From Bacteroidales bacterium (lineage in GTDB: Bacteria; Bacteroidota; Bacteroidia; Bacteroidales; UBA12077): a stretch of 64,000 bases of DNA. The stretch covers positions 1,054 through 65,053 of the forward strand of contig DATFIZ010000123.1 of assembly GCA_035269575.1 (NCBI GenBank). Direction: 5' to 3'. Below the pieces are notes generated by a model, which was not told the origin of the DNA, made no database searches, and saw only the letters and a list, made by a program, of their open reading frames with translations. Positions 32,854 through 51,787 of this stretch are shown here, one piece after another; position 1 is the first letter of the stretch; the number at the start of each line of letters is the position of its first letter. The position numbers and the translations under genes are program-made.

Positions 32854-32857
32854 ACTG

Positions 32858-32928
32858 AGGTCGGTGGCGGATTCGAACCGCCGTACGTGGTTTTGCAGAC
32901 CAGTGCCTAGCCACTCGGCCAACCGACC
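32858..32928 (-). tRNA. tRNA-Cys (GCA)
   Basis: Minus strand reads GGTCGGT TG GCC GAGTGGCTA GGC A CTGGT CTGCAAA ACCAC GTAC GGCGG TTCGAAT CCGCC ACCGACC T. This folds as a cloverleaf with a GCA anticodon. There is one C-C mismatch at the top of the anticodon stem. Confidence 0.85.
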
Positions 32929-33492: not shown

Positions 33493-35199
33493 ATGAATAC
33501 CGAAAACAAAGAAACAGAAGGACGTAAATCATTAAACTTTATCGAAAGTATAGTTGAGGAAGATTTAAAAAACAATAAAAACAATGGAATTGTCTGTACC
33601 CGGTTTCCGCCCGAACCCAACGGGTATTTACATATCGGGCATGCCAAATCCATTTGTTTAAATTTCGGTCTTGCCCAGAAATATAATGGAAAAACAAACC
33701 TGCGGTTCGACGATACCAATCCCGAAAAGGAGGAAGTAGAATATGTTGATTCCATTAAAGAGGATGTACGTTGGTTAGGATTTGAATGGGAAGGTGAAGC
33801 TCGTTTTGCTTCCGATTATTTTGATCAGCTTTACGAATGGGCTGTAAAATTGATTAAGGATGGAAATGCTTATGTTGATGATCAAACCCCTGAAATTATA
33901 GGTAAGCAACGAGGTACTCCAACGCAGCCTGGGGTTGAAAGCCCACACCGGAATCGTCCTGTTGCAGAAAGTCTCGATCTTTTTACGCGCATGAAAAATG
34001 GTGAATTTAAAAGTGGCGAAAGAGTTTTACGTGCCAAAATTGATATGGCATCACCCAATATGCATATGCGCGATCCGATTATGTATAGAATTCTGCATAA
34101 AGAACATCACCGTACGGCTGATAAATGGTGTATTTATCCGATGTATGATTTTGCTCACGGCCAGTCGGATTATATTGAAGGAATTACACATTCTGTTTGT
34201 ACGTTGGAGTTTGAAGTACACCGGCCTTTGTACGAATGGTTTTTAAATCATTTGTATACCGAAGGAACCATAAGGCCCAGACAGATTGAATTTGCAAGGC
34301 TCAATTTAAGTTACACCATCATGAGTAAACGAAAGTTGCTTGAACTGGTACAGAAAGAGATTGTTAGCGGATGGGATGACCCGCGTATGCCAACCATTTC
34401 AGGTTTGCGACGAAGAGGGTTTACACCCGAATCTATTCGCAAATTTGCCGATACTATTGGTGTAGCCAAGCGCGACAATGTAATTGATGTAGCTTTACTT
34501 GAACATAGCTTGCGGGATGATCTGAACAAGAAAGCTCCTCGTGTAATGGCTGTTTTAAATCCGTTGAAAATTGTGATTACTAATTATCCTGAAGATAGGG
34601 AAGAATATGTAACCATTGACAATAATCCTGAAGATGAAAGTATGGGAATCCGAGAAATGCCGTTTTCGCGAGAGATTTATATTGAACAGGATGATTTTAT
34701 GGAGGATGCCCCTAAAAAATTCTTCCGTCTGGCTCCCGGGAAAGAAGTACGCTTAAAAGCGGCATATATTATTAAATGCGAAGAAGTAATTAAAGACTCC
34801 GGAGGAAATATTACAGCGTTGCATTGTACGTATGATCCTGAATCGAAAAGCGGTAGCGGAACCGAAGCAAGTAAACGCAAGGTAAAAGGAACATTACACT
34901 GGGTGTCGGCAAAACATGCTTTGTCGGCAGAAGTAAGGCTGTACGATCGCTTGTTTAGTGATCCTGACCCTTCGGGACATAAAGACAAAGACTTTAAGGA
35001 ATTTATCAACCCCAAATCATTAAAAATTTTAACAAACTGTAAAATTGAACCCGGATTGAAAGATGCAAAACCGGAATCGAAATATCAGTTCCAGCGATTA
35101 GGATATTTTTGTGTGGATAAAAAAGATGCACAACCCGAGAAGTTGGTTTTTAACCGGACCGTTCCGTTAAAAGATTCGTGGAGTAAGAAGAATAAGTAA
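33493..35199 (+). CDS. glnS: Glutamine--tRNA ligase
   Basis: Class I motifs: HIGH ([14 protein letters not shown]) and KMSKS-like (IMSKRKL). 568 aa with GlnRS-type N-terminus [11 protein letters not shown]. Confidence 0.95.
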
Positions 35200-35259
35200 T
35201 ATATTAAGTCATACTTAGTCAAACATAGTGTGACAGGTTCAATGTGAAAAGTTAATTAG

Positions 35260-35303
35260 AAAGTTGTCATCCTGAGCAAGTCGAAGGATGAACAACTTTT
35301 TTT
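35260..35303. terminator. Terminator hairpin between convergent glnS and the DUF4197 gene
   Basis: AGTTGTCATCC (35262-35272) / GGATGAACAACT (35286-35297), followed by T7. It overlaps the stop codon of the minus-strand gene. Confidence 0.7.
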
Positions 35304-36045
35304 ACCCAAATACTTTTTTCAAAATATCGTTAACCCTTGCTACAGGGTCTTTGCGGATTTGCTTTTCTTCTTCAGCTATTTTTATAAATAAGCCATCTAA
35401 TGCCTTTTGGGTAAGATAATCTTCCAATTGGATATTTACAGGTTTGTAACCTCCAATTTGTCCCACCATTGAGTTGGCAAAGTTGTTCCAGGCACCGGTT
35501 AAGTTATTCCATGTTTCCGCTGCAGAGATATTCCCCACTAAGTTTTTATTGACTGAAGACTTAATTTTAGGTTGATATAAGGTATATAGCTGCTGGTAGG
35601 TCGTTTTTCTCAGATAATGGGTGGCAGCGGTATCTGCACCATTTAAAATGCCCAAAGCATCTGAAATAGTCATGGATGTGATACTTTGTTTAAAAACAGG
35701 TGCTGCTTCCTTTGAGGCATCCTCGGCAGCACGGTTAATACTTAAAATTACTTTATCAGTTAGTTGTTCACCACCCGGAATTTTATTCACATTTTCGAGG
35801 ATCACATTTGCCTCTTCAGGGAGTAAAATTTTCAGGGCCTCATTTTTATAATATCCGTTTACCTTTGATAGTTGGTGCACGGCGGTATCTGTACCAACGC
35901 GTAATGCTTCTTTGAGGCCTTTGGCAATGTCTGATTTTGTAAGTGTAGCGCTACTCTCTGTTGAAGAAAGGACTTTTGCCGCCTGCTCTAATTCTGCGCA
36001 GGATAATAAGGATAACAACACGAAGTAAATGACTGTTTTTTTCAT
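35302..36045 (-). CDS. DUF4197-like lipoprotein
   Basis: Lipobox LLSC, then LTKSDIAKGLKEALRVGTDTAVHQLSKVNGYYKNEALKILLPEE, the pattern I associate with DUF4197. Confidence 0.7.
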   Translation of the reverse strand: MKKTVIYFVLLSLLSCAELEQAAKVLSSTESSATLTKSDIAKGLKEALRVGTDTAVHQLSKVNGYYKNEALKILLPEEANVILENVNKIPGGEQLTDKVILSINRAAEDASKEAAPVFKQSITSMTISDALGILNGADTAATHYLRKTTYQQLYTLYQPKIKSSVNKNLVGNISAAETWNNLTGAWNNFANSMVGQIGGYKPVNIQLEDYLTQKALDGLFIKIAEEEKQIRKDPVARVNDILKKVFG

Positions 36046-36082
36046 CGGTAAAAAATTTTGGATGTGTTTACAACAAATTTAA

Positions 36083-37002
36083 TTAAAAATCAAACAATCC
36101 GTTAACCGATAGATATTTTTCTCCTGTATCATAAGCAATAGTTAATATTTTCGAACCTTTTGGGATATTCTGTAAATATTGGTTTATGGCAGCAAGCGAT
36201 GCTCCTGTTGAAATCCCTGCAAATAATCCTTCCATTTTTGCTGCTTTTTGAGCAAATATGAAAGCATCATCGTGTATTACACGTATCGTACCATCCAGAA
36301 TATTCATATTTAAATTTTTGGGTATAAATCCGGCACCAATACCTTGAATTTTATGTGCTCCGGGTTTGTACCACGAATAACCTGAGAATTTTCCGGCTCC
36401 ACAGCATATACTTTTAAATTCTTGTATTTGGTTTTTAGCACTTCTCCAATACCCGTAATATGACCACCACTGCCTACACCGGTAATAAAATAATCAAATC
36501 CTTCGGGGAAATCATAAAAAATTTCAAGAGCGCTTGTTTTACGGTGTATTTCAGGATTTGAACGATTTTCAAATTGCATTGGTATCCATGCATCGGTGAT
36601 TTCATGACTTAGTTTAGCAGCCTTTTGTATAGAGCCTTTCATCCCGTCTTCTTTCGGAGTTAAAACAATTTCGGCTCCATAAGCTGCCATAATCTGAACC
36701 CGTTCTTTCGACATGGATTCGGGCATAACCAATATTAATCGGTAACCTTTAACAGCAGCAACAACGGCCAGGCCTATCCCTGTATTACCGGAGGTAGGTT
36801 CTATTATTGTACTTCCCTCTTTTAATGTCCCCATTTGCTCGGCATTTTCAACCATAGCCAAAGCAATGCGATCTTTTATACTACCTCCCGGATTGTCTTT
36901 TTCTAATTTAATCCACACTTCGTGATGAGGGAATAGCTTTTTTAATCTTAAATGGGGTGTATGCCCTATGGTTTGTAAGATATTTTCAACTCTCATAATC
37001 AA
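36083..37002 (-). pseudogene. cysK: Cysteine synthase A (O-acetylserine sulfhydrylase) interrupted by a -1 frameshift
   Basis: Track ORFs 36310-37002 and 36083-36307 are the N- and C-terminal parts of one CysK. The PLP-binding GGSIKDR and the GNTG and [10 protein letters not shown] motifs are in the first part. The canonical [19 protein letters not shown]...[10 protein letters not shown] appears only after shifting frame at coding-strand ACAAACCC (plus-strand TTT 36364-36366). One extra A would restore the frame. Confidence 0.8.
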
Positions 37003-37008
37003 CTTACT

Positions 37009-37845
37009 TTAAATGACAAAATTGATGGGTTCGTTTACGTTTTCATTATGTACTTTAATTTCACTTACATTATAAACAACAGAACGGGGGGCGACACTTT
37101 TAGTTAACCAAACATTTCCGCCAATGACACTATTGTGCCCGATTACTGTTTTTCCTCCTAAAATAGTTGAACCACTATAAATAATTACATTATCTTCAAT
37201 GGTGGGATGTCTTTTAGTTTTTGCTTCGCTTTTTTTAACATTTAATGCACCGATGGTAACCCCCTGATAAATTTTAACATTATTTCCTATATCAGATGTT
37301 TCACCAATAACAACACCCGTCCCATGATCGATAAAAAACGACTTCCCTATTTTTGCTCCAGCATGAATATCAATTCCCGTATTTGTATGTGCATATTCAG
37401 ACATTAGCCTGGGAAGAACTGGCACACTCAATTCATATAAAGGGTGTGCTAACCGATAGGTCATGATGGCCTGAAAGCCCGGATATGCTGAAATAACTTC
37501 TTCTAAAGAATAGGCTGCCGGGTCAAATTTCTGAATGGCTTTGGCATCTGAAATTAACTGATCGTATATAGAAGGTATTTTTTGAAAATATTCTTCTACA
37601 ATTTCATTAATTTGTTTTTTTAACACAGGCTTAACTGGCAATAATAGTTCTTTTAATGATAGTTTCAGGTGGTCCCAGGCAATATCAGTTTTTCCTGGGT
37701 TTATAGTTACCTCTTTGCAAACAGGAAATAATAAATTTGATAAGTCAGTTAAAAATTTATGTGCCACTGGTTTTGTAGGATAATTACTGGACATTTGCTG
37801 ATTAAAAGCATACAGTCGTTTTAAAAAGTCTTGTGATTCCATCAT
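37009..37845 (-). CDS. cysE: Serine O-acetyltransferase
   Basis: Left-handed beta-helix hexapeptide region GIDIHAGAKIGKSFFIDHGTGVVIGETSDIGNNVKIYQGVTIG...HPTIEDNVIIYSGSTILG, plus a helical N-terminal domain. Confidence 0.9.
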   Translation of the reverse strand: MMESQDFLKRLYAFNQQMSSNYPTKPVAHKFLTDLSNLLFPVCKEVTINPGKTDIAWDHLKLSLKELLLPVKPVLKKQINEIVEEYFQKIPSIYDQLISDAKAIQKFDPAAYSLEEVISAYPGFQAIMTYRLAHPLYELSVPVLPRLMSEYAHTNTGIDIHAGAKIGKSFFIDHGTGVVIGETSDIGNNVKIYQGVTIGALNVKKSEAKTKRHPTIEDNVIIYSGSTILGGKTVIGHNSVIGGNVWLTKSVAPRSVVYNVSEIKVHNENVNEPINFVI

Positions 37846-37861
37846 CTCATTTAATTTTTAC

Positions 37862-37893
37862 TAAAACAAAAAACCCTTCCAATGTGGAAGGGC
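37862..37893 (-). terminator. Rho-independent terminator 16 nt upstream of the cysE ATG (attenuator terminator; it also ends tcdA read-through)
   Basis: Minus-strand RNA reads CCCUUCCA-CAU-UGGAAGGG, followed by UUUUUUGUUUU. Confidence 0.75.
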
Positions 37894-37923
37894 TCTATTA
37901 TTTATCTATATAATTATTTTAAA

Positions 37924-38001
37924 TTATAAAATGTACAAACCCCTCCATAAGAATATCTTACAGCAACAATAAAGGTTTATATTTTTATAATTGTTAATCA
38001 T
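37924..38001 (-). CDS. Candidate cysteine leader peptide, 25 aa: MINNYKNINLYCCCKIFLWRGLYIL
   Basis: Minus-strand reading: ATG 38001, TGT TGC TGT at 37968-37960, TAA at 37926-37924. It lies between a TAnnTTTG box and the terminator that precedes cysE. It is below the 60-aa cut-off of the ORF track. Confidence 0.5.
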   Translation of the reverse strand: MINNYKNINLYCCCKIFLWRGLYIL

Positions 38002-38020
38002 AAATCTGTTTATATCAGTA

Positions 38021-38028
38021 CAAATATA
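38021..38028 (-). promoter_or_regulatory. Candidate -7 promoter box (TATATTTG on the minus strand) for the cys leader/cysE-cysK transcript
   Basis: Exact TAnnTTTG match, 19 nt upstream of the leader-peptide ATG. No such box fits between the terminator and the cysE ATG. Confidence 0.4.
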
Positions 38029-38054
38029 AATTAAATTAGTTTAATAACAAGTTA

Positions 38055-38777
38055 TTAATTTTCAATCATATCACGAATAACTACTGATGCACAAAAACAT
38101 CCGTAGATGGGTGGCATATAAGAAATTGTTCCAATCGTTGATTTTTTATTTTCACCCGGTTCATCAACGATAACGGCACTCTCATCAGCTTTTTCTTCAG
38201 AAAAAACTACTTTTACACCTTTCGAGATGCCTAATTTGCGTAATCTTTTCCTGAGCAGGAAACCTAACCGGCAATTATAGGATTTTGAAATATCTTTAAT
38301 CTTAAGTTTAGTAGGATCCATTCGACCTCCCGATCCCAAAGAGCTTACAATTTTAAATCCTTTTTTTCTTGCATGATAAATAAGATAAACTTTTGGAGAC
38401 AACGTATCAATAGCATCAACCACATAATCGTAAGGTTTGTTTAGGATATCAATCATTTGGTTATCTTTAACAAACGCTTGTATACTATTTATTTTGAGTT
38501 CGGGATTAATATCCCGCAATCGCTCACTTAAGATTTGTGTTTTGGATTTACCCATTGTGCTTTCAAGTGCAATGAGTTGTCGGTTCTTGTTTGACGGATG
38601 AAGTGTGTCGCCATCAACAATGGTTAGTTCGCCAATCCCGGCTCTGCACAAATTTTCAGCAGCATAGGCTCCCACTCCGCCCAGACCAACAATAAGAATA
38701 TGGGCATTTTTTAATTTATTAACCTTTTCTTTACCAATTAATAATTCTGTACGTTCCTGCCAATTTTCTGTACTCAT
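38055..38777 (-). CDS. tcdA: tRNA threonylcarbamoyladenosine dehydratase (ThiF/MoeB/HesA-family E1-like)
   Basis: ILIVGLGGVGAYAAENLCRAGIGELTIVDGDTLHPSNKNRQ nucleotide-binding motif. 240 aa, which fits TcdA/CsdL size. Confidence 0.8.
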   Translation of the reverse strand: MSTENWQERTELLIGKEKVNKLKNAHILIVGLGGVGAYAAENLCRAGIGELTIVDGDTLHPSNKNRQLIALESTMGKSKTQILSERLRDINPELKINSIQAFVKDNQMIDILNKPYDYVVDAIDTLSPKVYLIYHARKKGFKIVSSLGSGGRMDPTKLKIKDISKSYNCRLGFLLRKRLRKLGISKGVKVVFSEEKADESAVIVDEPGENKKSTIGTISYMPPIYGCFCASVVIRDMIEN

Positions 38778-38824
38778 AAATTAAATGATTTTAGCAAAAA
38801 ATAAATCTTCATATATTGAAAGCA

Positions 38825-38832
38825 CAAATTTA
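38825..38832 (-). promoter_or_regulatory. Candidate -7 promoter box (TAAATTTG on the minus strand) for tcdA
   Basis: Exact TAnnTTTG match, 48 nt upstream of ATG 38777. Confidence 0.35.
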
Positions 38833-38925
38833 AAATTTCTATCTATTTTATTTATTGTTGCTCTTTTATTGCCATTGCCTTCAGCTTCAGCTGACGGAAA
38901 AGAGATTAAACAAAGAACTAAGGTT

Positions 38926-39615
38926 TTAGCCGGGGTTATTATTTCTCAAAAAATTTTGTAAGTTATTCACCAGCTGTAATTTAAGCTCGTCGACACGAAT
39001 CATCATCTTTTCAGCCGCAATCTGATACATCTCTTTTATTGAAATATTAAAATCATCGGTTTCAAGAAAGATTCTGTCTTTCGGCAGTTGATGAAAAAAT
39101 TGATTTATTCTTGAATTTTCATTTTTAATATGATGACAAATAGATAAATAAAACCCATGATCAATAAAATCCAAAGCCATCTGCTGGCTGCCGGTAAAAT
39201 TATGGATTACCCAATTAGCGCTGGGTCGTGTATCTTTTTTTAATTTTAGGATTTCATTATGTGCTTTTACCGAATGAATAACCAAAGGTAAATGATGCTT
39301 TTCGGATAGTTCGATATGTTTTTTAAAAACCTGAAATTGCGTTTCCCACTGAACACCTTTCAGTTTATCCAGTCCGGTTTCGCCAATAGCAATTATTTTT
39401 TTTGCAGATATGAGTTTTTTGAGTTTCTGGGCTATTTGATTTAATGCTAGCTGATCAGCATGCCAGGGATGTAGCCCGGCAGTAAAAAAAATCTTACCAC
39501 TATCATCTGTGGTAAGATTATCCTGCAAAAACAAACTTTGAATAACAATTTCGTTCTCACCGGGTATCTGTTGATGAGCGTGAAAATTTAAGTAGTTATC
39601 ACCAGAAAGATGCAT
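38926..39615 (-). CDS. TatD-family metal-dependent hydrolase
   Basis: Metal-ligand pattern: N-terminal HAH, GETGLD, VIHSV and LETD. Confidence 0.75.
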   Translation of the reverse strand: MHLSGDNYLNFHAHQQIPGENEIVIQSLFLQDNLTTDDSGKIFFTAGLHPWHADQLALNQIAQKLKKLISAKKIIAIGETGLDKLKGVQWETQFQVFKKHIELSEKHHLPLVIHSVKAHNEILKLKKDTRPSANWVIHNFTGSQQMALDFIDHGFYLSICHHIKNENSRINQFFHQLPKDRIFLETDDFNISIKEMYQIAAEKMMIRVDELKLQLVNNLQNFLRNNNPG

Positions 39616-39632
39616 AAATAATTAATCATTAA

Positions 39633-41165
39633 TTATTTTTTTATACGATCAACCCCTGTCTGAATTCTTTTCAATGTTTCTTCTTTTCCTATAAGTTCAG
39701 CTATTTCAAAAACGCCCGGACCTATGCCGGCTCCCACGAGTGTTAATCGTAAAGGATTCATGATCTGCCCCATACCTATTTCTTTTTCTTCCATTAAAAT
39801 TTGTACTTCTTTATTCATTGAATCCTGATTAAAGTCGTCTAATGCTTCAAAGCGTTTTTTTAATTCTGTTAATAATTCAGGAGTATGTTCTTTCCACCTT
39901 TTTTTCACCACTTTAGGGTCATATTCTTTGGGTGACTGAAAAAAGAACCAGGATTGTTCCCAAAAATCCGAAACAAAATGTGCTCGTTCTTTAATCAGCT
40001 TTACAATTTTAATAACATAAGCATCATTAACGGTAATTCCTTTTTCTTTTAATTCTTTTTGAAATTGTCGGGCTAATTTTTCATCGGAACGAGCTACCAG
40101 GTATTTATGATTAAACCATTTTGCCTTTTCAGGATCGAACCGGGCTCCACCTTTTTGTACTTTTTCAATATCAAAAGCAGCGATTAATTCACGCATAGAA
40201 AATATTTCTTTTTCGGTTCCCGGATTCCATCCAAGCAATGTAATCATATTTACAAATGCTTCTGGAAAATAACCATCTTCGCGATATCCTCTTGACACTT
40301 CTCCTGTTTTAGGATCGGTCCACTCAAGGGGAAATACAGGGAACCCCAGAGCATCACCATCACGCTTGCTTAATTTCCCTTTACCATTGGGTTTTAACAA
40401 TAAGGGCAGGTGGGCAAACTCCGGCATCGTATCTTCCCAGCCTAAAGCTCTGTAAAGCATAACATGTAGAGGTAATGAGGGTAACCATTCTTCACCACGT
40501 ATTACATGAGAAATTTTCATAAAATGATCATCGATAATATTGGCCAGGTGATAAGTAGGCATTCCATCAGATTTAAATAATACTTTATCATCCAGCTGAT
40601 TGGTATTTACCTTCACCGTTCCGCGAATTATATCCTCGACAACAATATTTTCGTTTTCGGGCATTTTAAATCTGATTACATAAGGTTCCCCGGATTGAAC
40701 TCTATCTTCGGTCTCTTCTTCGCTTAAGGAAAGCGAATTTTTCATGCGGTCCCGGGTAAGTGCATTATATTGCTGTACACTGTTTTTCTCATTTTTAAGG
40801 CGTTCGCGCATTGCTTCAAGTTCTTCTGCTGTATCGAAAGCAAAATATGCATTTCCTGTTTCTACAAATTTCTCGGCTATTTCTTTGTAGATTTCTTTAC
40901 GGTCTGATTGACGATAGGGTCCATAAGGGCCACCTTCTTCAACTCCCTCGTCAATTTGGATACCACACCATTTTAAGGATTCAATAATGTAATCCTCTGC
41001 ACCTTCAACATATCGTGCCTGGTCGGTATCTTCAATGCGTAAGATGAAACTTCCTTTGTGTTTTTTGGCAAAAAGATAGTTAAATAAAGCGGTTCGTACA
41101 CCTCCCATATGTAATGGTCCTGTTGGACTGGGGGCAAATCTTACGCGCACATTTCGGTTATTCAT
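39633..41165 (-). CDS. gltX: Glutamate--tRNA ligase
   Basis: RFAPSPTGPLHMGGVRTALFNY (HIGH-type) and KLSKRDG (KMSKS-type). 510 aa. Confidence 0.95.
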   Translation of the reverse strand: MNNRNVRVRFAPSPTGPLHMGGVRTALFNYLFAKKHKGSFILRIEDTDQARYVEGAEDYIIESLKWCGIQIDEGVEEGGPYGPYRQSDRKEIYKEIAEKFVETGNAYFAFDTAEELEAMRERLKNEKNSVQQYNALTRDRMKNSLSLSEEETEDRVQSGEPYVIRFKMPENENIVVEDIIRGTVKVNTNQLDDKVLFKSDGMPTYHLANIIDDHFMKISHVIRGEEWLPSLPLHVMLYRALGWEDTMPEFAHLPLLLKPNGKGKLSKRDGDALGFPVFPLEWTDPKTGEVSRGYREDGYFPEAFVNMITLLGWNPGTEKEIFSMRELIAAFDIEKVQKGGARFDPEKAKWFNHKYLVARSDEKLARQFQKELKEKGITVNDAYVIKIVKLIKERAHFVSDFWEQSWFFFQSPKEYDPKVVKKRWKEHTPELLTELKKRFEALDDFNQDSMNKEVQILMEEKEIGMGQIMNPLRLTLVGAGIGPGVFEIAELIGKEETLKRIQTGVDRIKK

Positions 41166-41210
41166 GTTAAAATATTTTTATGGCTGTTAAATACTTTCCT
41201 TATTTCTTAA

Positions 41211-41218
41211 CAAAAATA
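41211..41218 (-). promoter_or_regulatory. Candidate -7 promoter box (TATTTTTG on the minus strand) for gltX
   Basis: Exact TAnnTTTG match, 46 nt upstream of ATG 41165. Confidence 0.35.
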
Positions 41219-41371
41219 AAGTATTCTTAAGTCTTTACATAATGCAATGTAAAGATATTTTGTGATACAGGCATTGATGTTGTACAACAAAATAATAGAT
41301 TATGATTAATTTGTAATCTTTTGTATATTCGAGCGCGAAATTAAAATTAAAAAAGAAACAATATTTTCAAT

Positions 41372-42322
41372 ATGAAGAACATATTAATTACAGGAGCATC
41401 AGGACAGATAGGTTCTGATCTTACGATTGAGTTGAGACGATTATTTGGTAATGATCATGTGATTGCTTCGGATATTAAACCCGGAACACCTGAAATAATG
41501 CAAGGAGGTCCATTTGAGACCCTGGATGTAATGGATAAAAAACGGATTGTTGAAGTTGTTGATAAATATAACATCACAGAAATATACCACCTGGCAGCCA
41601 TTCTTTCCGGCAATGCAGAAAAAAATCCAAAGTGGGCATGGGATATCAATATGACCAGTTTATTTAATGTATTGGATATTGGTAAAGAAAAAGAAATAAA
41701 AAAAATATTCTGGCCCAGCTCAATGGGTGCTTTTGGTCCTACAACTCCGCCCATTGATACGCCTCAATTAACCATAATGGAACCATCAACGGTTTATGGT
41801 ATAAGCAAATTAGCGGGCGAACGATGGTGCGAATATTATTATAATAAATATGGTTTGGATGTAAGAAGCTTGCGTTATCCGGGTTTAATCAGCTGGAAGA
41901 CCGAAGCAGGAGGTGGAACTACAGATTATGCTGTAGAAATTTTTTACGATGCCATTACGTGCGGAAAATATGAATGTTTCCTTTCTGAAGACATTGCATT
42001 ACCGATGATGTATATGGATGATGCGGTAAAAGCAACGATTCAGCTTATGGAAACGGATGCTAAAAATGTAAGGGTACGTTCAAGCTATAATTTAGGAGGG
42101 ATAAGTTTTACTCCGAAAGAAATTACCGATGAAATCAAAAAATATATCCCTGAATTAGATGTAAGCTATAAGCCGGATTTCAGACAGGAAATTGCAGAAT
42201 CATGGCCCCGCAGTATAAGTGACGTAGCAGCTCAGCAAGACTGGGGATGGAAACATGAATTTGATCTGGGAAAAATGACGAAGGTGATGATTGATAATAT
42301 CAGGGAGAAGTTAAAAAAATAG
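41372..42322 (+). CDS. NAD-dependent epimerase/dehydratase-family protein, probably SDR-type L-threonine 3-dehydrogenase
   Basis: ILITGASGQIGSDLTIELRRLFGNDHVIASD Rossmann motif and YGISK catalytic YxxxK. The size and N-terminus resemble the UDP-glucose-4-epimerase-like threonine dehydrogenases. No kbl gene is adjacent. Confidence 0.65.
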   Translation: MKNILITGASGQIGSDLTIELRRLFGNDHVIASDIKPGTPEIMQGGPFETLDVMDKKRIVEVVDKYNITEIYHLAAILSGNAEKNPKWAWDINMTSLFNVLDIGKEKEIKKIFWPSSMGAFGPTTPPIDTPQLTIMEPSTVYGISKLAGERWCEYYYNKYGLDVRSLRYPGLISWKTEAGGGTTDYAVEIFYDAITCGKYECFLSEDIALPMMYMDDAVKATIQLMETDAKNVRVRSSYNLGGISFTPKEITDEIKKYIPELDVSYKPDFRQEIAESWPRSISDVAAQQDWGWKHEFDLGKMTKVMIDNIREKLKK

Positions 42323-42335
42323 ACAGATAAAAATT

Positions 42336-42363
42336 TAAAAACCCGGCTTTTGCCGGGTTTTTG
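42336..42363. terminator. Terminator hairpin between the convergent 41372-42322 gene and nrdJ
   Basis: AACCCGGC (42340-42347) / GCCGGGTT (42352-42359), flanked by an A-run and a T-run. Confidence 0.8.
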
Positions 42364-42422
42364 CTATGATTTGATATCACAGCCTTTTTTTGCAAATATT
42401 GGAAATATAAACTACAAAATTT

Positions 42423-45444: not shown

Positions 45445-45483
45445 CGAAAAAAATAAAGGCTGTCCAAAAAATGAACAGCCTTT
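45445..45483 (-). terminator. Rho-independent terminator after the TonB-receptor/lipoprotein pair
   Basis: Minus-strand hairpin AAAGGCTGT / ACAGCCTTT (plus 45455-45463 and 45475-45483), followed by a U-rich run. Confidence 0.8.
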
Positions 45484-45508
45484 AGATTATAAAGCAGAAG
45501 AATTATAT

Positions 45509-47461
45509 TTATTCTATTCTTCTCATACCATATTTACCATAAACAGTTTCCGGTTCGTCTGCATAATCAGTATGTTGTGTGAACTCCGGATCTGGTCCGT
45601 CTTTTGTACACTGGAAATGTATAGTATAATAGTTCTTAGATAAATCATTTTCGTAGGTATAGAATGTTACATAATAGTGAACATCTACTCCGCTAACAGT
45701 CGCTGTGGCTTCCGGATATTTTTGTTTCAGCAGTATATCAATTGCTTCAGGTAACCTTTTCCAGGTTTCATCAATGGCTTCATCTTGTGTTAAACCGTCA
45801 AATCCGGGGATATTATATTCATTTCTTTTACCCAATCGAAGATCAAAATTTGAATAATATGAACTTGCTCCGTAATAAAATTCACCCGTTCCGTAAGAGT
45901 CGATATAATCCTGGCTGACTTCATTTTTTACATAATCAACAATGATTTGATAATCGGCCCCTGACATGGTGAATTCAATGGTTGGATCGAAAACCCAATT
46001 CTCTCCATTATGAATAAATTGCTGGGTTGTTTCATTAATATAATTGTAAAGTGACTGCCACTCCCCATTGGTGTATGTATATTCATCGGCTAAGGTTAAT
46101 GTACCTTCAATTCCTGTATAATAATCGTATATGATAATTTTAGTAATCCCTTCGCCAGCAGCAGGATACATTGCTTTTAATAAATTGGGCAAGTAATCCC
46201 GTGGACTTTCATCACTGGAGAAACTGTTGTAATCTCCGGGAGCTCCCATTGCATCATAATCCTTACTACTTAGATGATAAACATCATCAACGATCATCCA
46301 TGAAGATCCATCATATTCATAGATATCATATTTGGTATAGGGTGTTTTTTCGTCTGTTACCACATAGCCAGGGTCATAAACTCTTACTGTAACATCATCA
46401 ATTTGCATGGTAGTGGTTATATCACCATCTCCACCAGTATATTTAAAAGCAATATAAACATTGCCTCCAGTATAAGTATCCAGAGTAATATTCCCGGATT
46501 CAACCCAGGAACTGGCATAGCCACCAGAATTTCCTGTTGATAAGGTTGGATTCAAATTTACCCATGTAGCCGTATTTGGGTCTCCGGTTCCGGTATAATC
46601 AGTAGAGATTAAAACTTCCAAGGGATCTCCATTATTATATCCATCTTTACTTTTGAAATTGAATATTGCTTCTGGATAATCAGTCAGGTCTACAACAGGG
46701 GTAATTAGCCAGCTAATATTAGATGGTTCTTCTGAACCATAGGCACTCATTTGTACATATAAATTGTTATCATACTCTCTGCCTTCCCAGGTTTCTGTGC
46801 CCACTTCATTAAAAACCATCCAGTTGTCAATATCTATTGATTCATAAGGGATTACCTCATTAAATTTTTCTTCAAAATAAATTGGATAGTCGCTTTCAGT
46901 CATAACAGGATCTACATCACTGTACTTATATTTTATAATATAGATTTCATCTTCAACCGCATCTGAAATACTATCATTTAAAACATCTGGAATAAAGAAA
47001 TCAGGATTGTATTCAGGATAAAAATAACCTGCTGTTCCAACAAACTCATTAACTGAATTGTAGTAATTTGATGTAAATTCTATTATTTCGGCATTAGAAT
47101 AAGTGGCCAGTTCGTCCGGAATATCAGCTATATAATTAAAGGTTACATTCGCTGCAGAATTCTTATTGAGTGCAGGAAATAAATCGGACAATAAATAAGG
47201 AACATAATCTGCCCCGGCGAAACTGTCATTGAATGCTTTAAAATTAGAAAGGTATTCAGCCCAGGTGGAATCCTGTGCGTTCTCAGCATCAGCTAAAGCA
47301 TAGGATGTTAATGTTTCATAATCGTTAGAAGTCAGCGTATATTCAATATTTTCATAATAGGGTTCCACTTTTTCGTCTAATTCTTTGTAGACATCATCCA
47401 TTTGTTCACAAGACCAAATGGATACTAATAAAATCGAGGTTAATATTAATATTTTTTTCAT
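45509..47461 (-). CDS. Surface lipoprotein (650 aa) with a central MAM/choice-of-anchor-J-like beta-sandwich; not SusD-like
   Basis: Lipobox SIWSC. The central region WMVFNEVGTETWEGREYDNNLYVQMSAYG...ISWLITPVVDL...LEVLISTDYTGTGDPNTATWVNL...YIAFKYTG...MQIDDVTV recalls choice-of-anchor J. The protein is acidic and Tyr/Asp-rich. Its start lies 13 nt downstream of the receptor gene's stop codon (12-nt gap). Confidence 0.65.
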   Translation of the reverse strand: MKKILILTSILLVSIWSCEQMDDVYKELDEKVEPYYENIEYTLTSNDYETLTSYALADAENAQDSTWAEYLSNFKAFNDSFAGADYVPYLLSDLFPALNKNSAANVTFNYIADIPDELATYSNAEIIEFTSNYYNSVNEFVGTAGYFYPEYNPDFFIPDVLNDSISDAVEDEIYIIKYKYSDVDPVMTESDYPIYFEEKFNEVIPYESIDIDNWMVFNEVGTETWEGREYDNNLYVQMSAYGSEEPSNISWLITPVVDLTDYPEAIFNFKSKDGYNNGDPLEVLISTDYTGTGDPNTATWVNLNPTLSTGNSGGYASSWVESGNITLDTYTGGNVYIAFKYTGGDGDITTTMQIDDVTVRVYDPGYVVTDEKTPYTKYDIYEYDGSSWMIVDDVYHLSSKDYDAMGAPGDYNSFSSDESPRDYLPNLLKAMYPAAGEGITKIIIYDYYTGIEGTLTLADEYTYTNGEWQSLYNYINETTQQFIHNGENWVFDPTIEFTMSGADYQIIVDYVKNEVSQDYIDSYGTGEFYYGASSYYSNFDLRLGKRNEYNIPGFDGLTQDEAIDETWKRLPEAIDILLKQKYPEATATVSGVDVHYYVTFYTYENDLSKNYYTIHFQCTKDGPDPEFTQHTDYADEPETVYGKYGMRRIE

Positions 47462-51516: not shown

Positions 51517-51749
51517 AAGGTCTAATTTATTTTTTTTGTTGTTTTTATTGGATAATTATCGCATTTGTTTTAATCTGCTGTTTATTAAGAAGTTAGGATT
51601 GGGTGTTTTTATCTGTATCGCTGTATATAGGATTAATATTGACTTTTGTTGACATTAATTTTATTTAAAATATTTGTTTTATGAATATTTTTTATATTTT
51701 AGCCCATAAATATGGATTTCTTGATATCCTAACCCTAAAATTTAAATCC

Positions 51750-51787
51750 AAAGGTCTTCTTCAAAATGAAGGCCTTTTTTTATTTTT
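51750..51787 (+). terminator. Orphan plus-strand terminator-like hairpin in the waaA/outer-membrane-protein intergenic region
   Basis: AAGGTCTTC (51751-51759) / GAAGGCCTT (51768-51776, one G-U pair), followed by T7AT6. No annotated plus-strand gene ends here. Confidence 0.5.

Follow-up and report, generated by a model that had tools for sequence, protein, structure and literature searches.

The window analysed here is a stretch of 64,000 nucleotides (nt) of the Bacteroidales bacterium contig DATFIZ010000123.1 (assembly GCA_035269575.1), and the element in question is a candidate cysteine-sensing leader located on its minus strand, directly upstream of the genes cysE and cysK. The leader comprises a short upstream open reading frame (uORF) with three tandem Cys codons, followed by an intrinsic terminator. 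Its parts, the alternative RNA helices predicted for it and the two genes that it precedes are listed in Table 1.

Table 1. Features of the leader and of the genes that follow it
Feature	Position	Strand	Description	Basis
Candidate promoter	38021..38050	-	TTG 38050-38048, 19-nt spacer, Bacteroidota-type -7 box TATATTTG 38028-38021	read from sequence
Leader peptide uORF	37924..38001	-	25 codons + stop, MINNYKNINLYCCCKIFLWRGLYIL; ATG 38001-37999, TAA 37926-37924	sequence and list of open reading frames
Three tandem Cys codons	37960..37968	-	TGT TGC TGT (codons 12-14); proposed sensor of Cys-tRNA(Cys) supply	
Helix 1:2 (anti-antiterminator)	37922..37992	-	long hairpin formed by the uORF	RNAfold, -18.3 kcal/mol
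Region 1 core	37980-37971	-	AUAAACCUUU, just 5' of the Cys codons; pairs with GGAGGGGUUU	
Region 2	37937..37947	-	UGGAGGGGUUU, strand shared between region 1 and region 3 pairing	sequence, duplex and fold computation
Antiterminator 2:3	37885..37947	-	37947-37937 with 37895-37885, 11 base pairs; encloses a small AU hairpin	RNAfold
Intrinsic terminator 3:4	37863..37896	-	AGAGCCCUUCCA / CAU / UGGAAGGGUUUU + U-run to 37863	sequence, terminator scan, fold
cysE	37009..37845	-	serine acetyltransferase, 278 amino acids; first regulated gene (predicted)	Pfam SATase_N and Hexapep
cysK	36083..37002	-	O-acetylserine sulfhydrylase, PALP family; second operon gene	Pfam PALP

With both strands of the window considered, the uORF is the single ATG-initiated short open reading frame (sORF) that has at least three Cys codons in a row. 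Eleven codons come after its Cys run; region 2 begins 13 nt past that run, and 10 nt lie between the end of region 2 and the stop codon. The distance of 19 nt between the -7 box and the ATG implies a short 5' untranslated region (UTR), and a start site a few nt past the box would leave about 12 nt ahead of the uORF. A sigma-70-like scan likewise flagged this site as a promoter (TTGTTA-16-TATATT at 38050-38023), and a TAnnTTTG box is found 11-24 nt 5' of the uORF ATG at five related loci (L081, L001, L082, L002 and L083). The terminator hairpin (37896-37870) has 12 pairs, 5 of them G-C, and is the top-scoring one of the region 35000-41500 in a simple terminator scan. Its inner arms, CCCUUCCA (37892-37885) and UGGAAGGG (37881-37874), are separated by the loop CAU and followed by the U-run UUUUUUGUUUU (37873-37863). 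No promoter was found between this terminator and cysE, the arrangement of an attenuator.

A preliminary description of the leader had been made from the letters of the window. Its coordinates for the TATATTTG box, the ATG, the 25-codon frame, the Cys codons, the segment UGGAGGGG (37947-37940), the terminator and the cysE ATG all agree with the minus strand as read over 37700-38300. Between the U-run and the cysE ATG there are 17 nt (37862-37846), where it gave 16. The antiterminator that it proposed as a helix of 8 base pairs is borne out as a predicted pairing, the helix being longer, as given in Table 1.

The 175-nt leader folds with -42.3 kcal/mol (z = -5.4 against 200 dinucleotide shuffles). 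RNAfold predicts three mutually exclusive helices of similar stability: helix 1:2, the antiterminator 2:3 (-18.9 kcal/mol with the enclosed small hairpin) and the terminator 3:4 (-16.5 kcal/mol). Helix 1:2 had not been part of the preliminary description. In this hairpin the last Cys codon and AAG are paired with CUUAUGG, the UAA stop codon lies within the 3' strand, and the Cys codons are placed within and beside the apical internal loop. The predicted 1:2 / 2:3 / 3:4 arrangement is the layout of the classical attenuators. The duplex of regions 2 and 3 has an energy of -15.3 kcal/mol versus -8.0 kcal/mol for shuffled sequences (z = -3.9).

The mutually exclusive geometry, in which region 2 is free with the ribosome on the Cys codons and lost with the ribosome at the stop codon, was supported by folding in which a 27-nt ribosome footprint was masked and the nascent RNA was folded up to the terminator loop, region 4 not yet having been made. 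Whichever of the three Cys codons the ribosome was placed on, the antiterminator 2:3 was the minimum-energy fold (-18.9 kcal/mol), and with the stop codon in the A site the antiterminator was abolished.

These features suggest the following course of events. Transcription would begin just past the TAnnTTTG box, and the 25-codon uORF would be translated while emerging from the polymerase. When Cys-tRNA(Cys) is scarce, the ribosome would stall on the Cys run, covering region 1 and the Cys codons and leaving region 2 free. Region 2 could then pair with the newly made region 3 (GAGCCCUUCCA), no terminator hairpin would form, and RNA polymerase would enter cysE-cysK. When cysteine is plentiful, the ribosome would reach the UAA, which is part of the 3' strand of helix 1:2 and lies 10 nt past region 2, so that region 2 would be occluded or re-paired with region 1; regions 3 and 4 would then form the terminator, and transcription would end at the U-run, short of cysE. 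If the uORF is not translated at all, helix 1:2 would be the first to form, and termination would be expected as well. In vivo, expression of cysE-cysK would thus be predicted to respond to the supply of cysteine.

The conservation that such a sensor predicts for the uORF and its Cys codons, named as a check by the preliminary description, was found. A search with the window CysE in one genome per species found 578 relatives; this search and one of metagenome contigs provided 160 loci, or 161 with the window. A uORF was counted when it had an ATG start, at most 70 codons and at least three consecutive Cys codons, and lay within 330 nt upstream of cysE. By this definition 24 of the 161 loci, the window included, carry a poly-Cys uORF. 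The module is present at all seven closest cysE loci (CysE identity of at least 60%), with three to four Cys codons each. Examples of the orthologous peptides are MITNYYKNTNLYCCCKISLREGLSIL (L081), MIANYKNINLCCCCKFYLWRGLYIL (L001), MNKNYKNITLCCCKLCLWRGSYVL (L082), MKNLNVNIMNCCCCKIFLQKGSICIY (L002), MKRINVHIDCCCCKIAYRSGMYLYF (L083) and MIYKIANNTLCCCCINLCRKGLLCRFK (L084). In distant lineages the Cys run is the sole feature common to otherwise unrelated peptides, e.g. MTKFKSYMACCCAATFGAMPGPFF, MRMNFLATCCCCCYPSFPEKGQALVGI and MQAAFFNTCCCLHS. Across relatives the run varies in length from three to eight codons, which switch synonymously between TGT and TGC yet always stay Cys. The window leader itself shows no difference among four independent assemblies, which come from different samples.

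The other parts of the module travel with the uORF. A hairpin with a U-tract follows 21-35 nt past the uORF stop codon in 20 of the 24 cases, whereas a terminator-like hairpin was found in the last 120 nt before cysE at only 5 of the 111 loci without a poly-Cys uORF (Fisher P = 1e-15), and one of these five, L006, has a variant of the leader with two Cys codons. All 20 terminators that follow poly-Cys uORFs have CCCUU(U)C in their 5' arm. The helix 1:2 hairpin was predicted independently at L001, L082, L002, L083 and L084 despite sequence changes, and cysK follows cysE at 17 of the 19 leader-bearing loci checked. Matches to a Cys-Cys-Cys run at L011, L062 and L066 were rejected as uORFs, being out-of-frame or end-of-gene sequence of upstream coding regions.

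The hairpin might simply be the terminator of the gene upstream, the Cys-rich sORF being a coincidence and cysE being transcribed from an unrecognised promoter of its own or by read-through. In the window the upstream gene, which encodes a ThiF/TcdA-like protein (38055-38777), is indeed on the same strand as cysE and ends 53 nt before the uORF, and the simple scan scores the terminator on the opposite strand too. Such an explanation is nevertheless extremely unlikely. The cysE ATG comes only 17 nt after the U-run, and the module recurs where the gene upstream is an unrelated one, with divergent orientation in 19 of 48 leaders; the terminator is therefore not simply that of the upstream gene. 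Moreover, the module tracks sulfur genes, not the upstream gene, and sORFs with three consecutive Cys codons are not scattered at random: in the 80 genome loci, which amount to 953 kb when both strands are counted, 13 of the 23 such sORFs fell into the 140 nt of sense strand upstream of cysE, where 0.27 would be expected (Poisson P = 5e-18), an enrichment of about 100-fold.

The association with sulfur genes was also recovered by a scan that was blind to gene content. The pattern TGTTGYTGYTGY-N48-78-CCCTTY-N3-12-RARGGG, which stands for four Cys codons and two terminator arms and sets no condition on genes or on an antiterminator, was searched in 185,579 species genomes and gave at least 122 matches in at least 120 loci. 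Of the 122 listed, 74 have neither a short open reading frame nor a U-tail and come mostly from other phyla, as expected of chance matches. At least 35 are clean, i.e. have an ATG-started sORF ending before the hairpin and a T-rich tail; among the matches listed, 32 of these 35 are labelled Bacteroidota or Ignavibacteriota and three 'uncultured bacterium', the taxa including Chitinophagales, Saprospiraceae, Runella, Flavobacteriales, Rikenellaceae, Bacteroidales, Ignavibacteria and Melioribacter. At least seven further Bacteroidota matches just missed the filters.

The first gene downstream of the 35 clean matches listed is cysE in 15 cases, a cysK-like PALP gene in seven and a gene for a NIR_SIR sulfite reductase of about 700 amino acids in five. 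Single cases among these matches are genes for phosphoadenosine phosphosulfate (PAPS) reductase, a Cys/Met-metabolism pyridoxal phosphate enzyme (MetY-like), a DsrE-like protein, beta-carbonic anhydrase, 1-Cys peroxiredoxin, a PBP-like binding protein and a large outer-membrane-type protein. One match (L164) has no open reading frame of at least 80 residues within 400 nt downstream. Since gene content is no part of the pattern, the association with sulfur genes is independent evidence for sensing of cysteine or sulfur status.

The module was seen in front of genes for 1-Cys peroxiredoxin (AhpC/TSA), beta-carbonic anhydrase, a DsrE-like protein, a PBP-like protein and a 922-residue outer-membrane-type protein at L278, L242, L253, L215 and L230. 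As judged from this gene content, the non-biosynthetic downstream genes hint at a wider sulfur and thiol regulon.

The pairing between regions 2 and 3 was assessed leader by leader. In each, the segment from 3 nt past the Cys run to the terminator was paired with the terminator 5' arm and compared with 300 dinucleotide shuffles of the first segment. The z value was below zero in 20 of 20 leaders of the cysE-derived set (mean -2.06, 10 at P < 0.05) and in 32 of 32 leaders of the pattern-derived set, for which no antiterminator had been required (mean -2.49, 18 at P < 0.05). The pairing segment starts mostly 12-13 nt past the last Cys codon in the former set and 4 to 22 nt past it in the latter. 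Bases flanking the conserved core co-vary, as in AGCCGAAGGGA with ACCCUUCGGC (L182), AACGAAGGGUA with AACCCUUCGU (L248), CAGAAAGGGA with GCCCUUUCU (L245) and GGCGGAAGGGUUUUG with AAAGCCCUUUUGC (L265).

The complementarity is also specific to the partners. When 49 non-redundant leaders were compared all against all with double centring, cognate regions 2 and 3 paired 2.0 kcal/mol better than non-cognate ones (z = -7.5; 0 of 5000 permutations). Beyond the CCCUU:RRGGG core, cognate partners formed 2.19 further contiguous pairs versus 1.32 for permuted partners (P < 1/2000).

On the basis of sequence comparison and modelled folds, we consider that the 25-codon poly-Cys uORF and the switchable terminator probably constitute a ribosome-mediated transcription attenuator that responds to cysteine and controls cysE-cysK (rough probability 85%). 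The preliminary description had reached the same interpretation, and conservation, the association with sulfur genes, the fold energies and the partner-specific pairing of regions 2 and 3 now support it. The element is most likely a cysteine-sensing on/off switch, because many Bacteroidota and Ignavibacteriota have the same design ahead of genes of sulfur and cysteine metabolism.

Several points weigh against this interpretation. First, the model assumes a tight coupling of transcription and translation in Bacteroidota. Second, the masked folding gave the antiterminator in the co-transcriptional interval only: at equilibrium the complete leader keeps the terminator in every case, even with the ribosome masked on the Cys codons. 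As the terminator wins at equilibrium in the full-length leader, the switch must be kinetic, as in known attenuators. Third, about 85% of the sampled Bacteroidota cysE loci have no poly-Cys leader element. Fourth, helix 1:2 has moderate support family-wide, with a mean z of -0.99, 35 of 49 leaders below zero and 14 of 49 below -1.64.

Finally, the covariation that the preliminary description had suggested looking for holds across the family as cognate 2:3 complementarity, but not column by column in the seven closest leaders, which were aligned both with MAFFT and with a covariance model. Among these seven, covariation was not significant for helix 1:2 and the terminator, in which 79.6% of the cells were paired versus 38-58% with slid partners. 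Nor was it significant for the antiterminator, in which 84% were paired but a slide of -1 still gave 79%. The lack of significance is partly due to misregister and to the fact that purine and pyrimidine tracts pair in several registers. Per-sequence energetics and the comparison of cognate with non-cognate partners were adopted because the alignment places L002, L083 and L084 in a shifted register.

It might also be considered that the poly-Cys uORF acts on translation or on mRNA stability, or encodes a Cys-rich micropeptide, while the terminator is unconditional. Action on translation has a precedent in the mycobacterial poly-Cys sORFs (bioRxiv 10.1101/834739), and 4 of the 24 uORFs upstream of cysE (L014, L026, L099 and L119) have a C-terminal Cys run and no recognisable terminator. 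The other 20 have a canonical hairpin and U-tract at a fixed distance, region 2 is complementary to the terminator arm of its own leader, and no sequestration of a Shine-Dalgarno sequence is evident. As regards a micropeptide, only the Cys run is conserved between lineages and the peptides range from 13 to 45 residues. Such variable length and lack of conservation outside the Cys run make a functional peptide unlikely. Taken as a whole, this explanation seems to us quite improbable.

In the four leaders just mentioned, the Cys run lies at the very C-terminus of the peptide (e.g. ...SGRGNCCC followed by the stop codon), no intrinsic terminator being recognisable before cysE. The uORFs are placed upstream of cysE at about 412-540 in L099 and about 286-420 in L119. 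These leaders may represent a different, perhaps translational, cysteine-sensing variant.

A leader as strongly structured as this one (see the z value above), with alternative terminator and antiterminator folds that resemble the expression platform of a riboswitch, might instead be an RNA that binds a ligand or a protein, as in riboswitches or protein-dependent antitermination, the reading frame being incidental. Across the relatives, what is kept is the Cys run, a frame with ATG and stop codon, and the three helices, without a conserved aptamer-like core. The synonymous TGT/TGC variation, with Cys always retained, and the lack of any Rfam family at threshold are further arguments against such a binding RNA, which we regard as very improbable. 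The Cys run could alternatively be read in the Leu frame (UUG UUG CUG). This reading was rejected, since that frame of the window has no open reading frame starting with ATG and the genes that follow belong to cysteine synthesis.

The classical leader-peptide attenuators are those of the trp, his, leu, thr, ilv and pheA systems of E. coli and Salmonella, and cysteine does not belong to this set. The predicted attenuator of cysE-cysK resembles them in its short open reading frame with tandem codons for the amino acid with which the pathway ends, in its three overlapping helices, in the intrinsic terminator placed directly before the first biosynthetic gene and in the freeing of region 2 by a stalled ribosome. 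It differs in that cysteine would be the amino acid sensed and in that the family, across Bacteroidota and Ignavibacteriota, would control a regulon made up of cysE, cysK and the genes for sulfite reductase, PAPS reductase and other proteins.

The preliminary description placed the leader among known systems, and the literature agrees with it in three respects. In Bacteroidota, trp, his, ilv and aromatic operons are documented cases of leader-peptide attenuation (PMC9723704 and supplement), among them the Bacteroid-trp leader and the his, ilvE and aromatic leaders of Flavobacterium psychrophilum (PMC9723704). The mycobacterial precedent that it named was found, and concerns translational control (bioRxiv 10.1101/834739). 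Its remark that no cys leader has been described in Bacteroidota also holds, as far as Rfam 15 and the searchable full-text literature go; the broad attenuator survey covering Bacteroidetes/Chlorobi (Lopatovskaya et al. 2010) lies outside that scope. No Rfam 15 family reached its gathering threshold in an E-value scan of 37000-39000, in a gathering scan of the whole window or at 11 related loci. The best scores, 25.2 bits for Phe_leader (gathering 55) and 25.8 bits for PyrG_leader (gathering 65), concern the terminator only, and the Bacteroid-trp model had no match to the window leader in the Rfam 15 scan.

Leaders with Cys codons are known or predicted outside Bacteroidota. In Actinobacteria, candidate cys leader peptides without terminators were described (Seliverstov et al. 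2005, PMC1262725), and in mycobacteria polycysteine leaderless sORFs act translationally and sense cysteine via the supply of Cys-tRNA (Canestrari et al. 2020, bioRxiv 10.1101/834739). According to the latter authors, uORF-mediated attenuation for cysteine had not previously been described. Consecutive Cys codons in a short open reading frame upstream of cysteine or sulfur genes are common to these elements and to the window leader. The actinobacterial elements, however, are leaderless, have no intrinsic terminator, and their Cys tract pairs with the downstream Shine-Dalgarno region, whereas the window element has a canonical terminator and antiterminator, involves no Shine-Dalgarno sequence, and has its Cys codons paired in helix 1:2 rather than with the cysE start region. 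The presence of the terminator thus sets it outside the mycobacterial polycysteine leaderless sORF attenuators.

Another of the nearest known cases is uORFC-8-2 of Rhodobacterales, which lies upstream of cysS, has two Cys codons and is predicted to be a leader of the terminator type (Brewer et al. 2021, PMC8632094). Both are predictions of a ribosome-mediated attenuator with tandem Cys codons, a terminator and a U-run. The description in PMC8632094 nevertheless sets them apart: uORFC-8-2 is alphaproteobacterial, precedes only cysS, a tRNA synthetase gene, and carries the two Cys codons (positions 14-15) within its first stem, whereas the window element precedes cysE and has three Cys codons at positions 12-14 beside the apical loop.

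As judged from sequence, the element is most likely a member of an undescribed, widespread attenuator family in Bacteroidota and Ignavibacteriota, the mechanism itself being of a known kind. We classify the family as new because the known cys leaders lie outside Bacteroidota, none of them exerts terminator control of cysE or cysK, there is no Rfam family for it and no description was found in the literature searched. The novelty lies in the specificity for cysteine, in the phylum and in the extent of the predicted regulon; the finding is less surprising because the mechanism itself is not new.

To our knowledge, the regulation of cysteine and sulfur assimilation in Bacteroidota is essentially unknown, the CysB, CymR, S-box and T-box solutions of model phyla being absent, and cysteine has long been missing from the classical terminator-type leader-peptide attenuators. 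The present element would provide a textbook terminator/antiterminator form of cysteine attenuation. We tentatively propose, while giving it somewhat less than an even chance, that poly-Cys leader-peptide attenuation is the main cysteine- and sulfur-responsive system in a large part of the Bacteroidota-Ignavibacteriota lineage and forms an RNA- and ribosome-based regulon. This regulon may include cysE, cysK, sulfite reductase, PAPS reductase and MetY-like enzymes and, less obviously, 1-Cys peroxiredoxin, DsrE-like proteins, beta-carbonic anhydrase and uptake proteins.

If so, poly-Cys attenuation would fill the role that CysB, CymR or T-box/S-box control has in other phyla, and its non-biosynthetic targets could tie thiol and redox physiology to the charging of Cys-tRNA. 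A comparative data set of more than 50 leader examples is now available, and the model is testable in cultured carriers, i.e. Runella limosa DSM 17973, Runella salmonicolor S5 and Foetidibacter luteolus YG09. The family might be useful for annotating sulfur-regulated genes in uncultured Bacteroidota and Ignavibacteriota and as a compact cysteine-responsive genetic part.

The cysK gene of the window is split into two open reading frames of 230 and 74 amino acids by a 1-nt deletion between 36370 and 36369 (CGTGGTACAAACCC versus CGTGGTGACAAACCC in L282 and L283). The latter two are other assemblies with an identical CysE protein, and their cysK is intact (304 amino acids). The same deletion is found in a third assembly (L281), and the frameshift reflects either an error of assembly or a pseudogene at the strain level. 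At the other end of the operon, a two-codon mini-ORF, ATG AGA TGA (ATGAGATGATGG; 37842-37850, minus strand), overlaps the cysE start codon; it is not conserved at L081 or L001 and is probably fortuitous.

At seven cysE loci of Chitinophagaceae that have no leader of their own (L029, L064, L069, L074, L077, L079 and L139), a pseudo-peptide 'CCAGWxIN...CCRSTAG' appears 300-380 nt upstream of cysE and was considered as a second Cys-rich or tRNA-like element. It was rejected as the out-of-frame 3' end of the upstream gene, and neither a tRNA nor an Rfam match was found at this site. The gene is presumably cysN-like, as its 3' end carries the LCWMD...YLLQINSR motif, recognised by eye. From this gene order, cysE would sit within a sulfate-assimilation operon in these bacteria.

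A covariance model of the leader had weak matches elsewhere in the window, at 42282-42371 (plus strand), 45446-45531 (minus strand) and 51707-51787 (plus strand), with 21-28 bits and E = 0.015-0.2; these probably correspond to the terminator half only, i.e. to ordinary terminators. A tRNA-Cys (GCA) gene was identified by ARAGORN at 32857-32928 of the minus strand, about 3 kb downstream of cysK and on the same strand as cysE-cysK.

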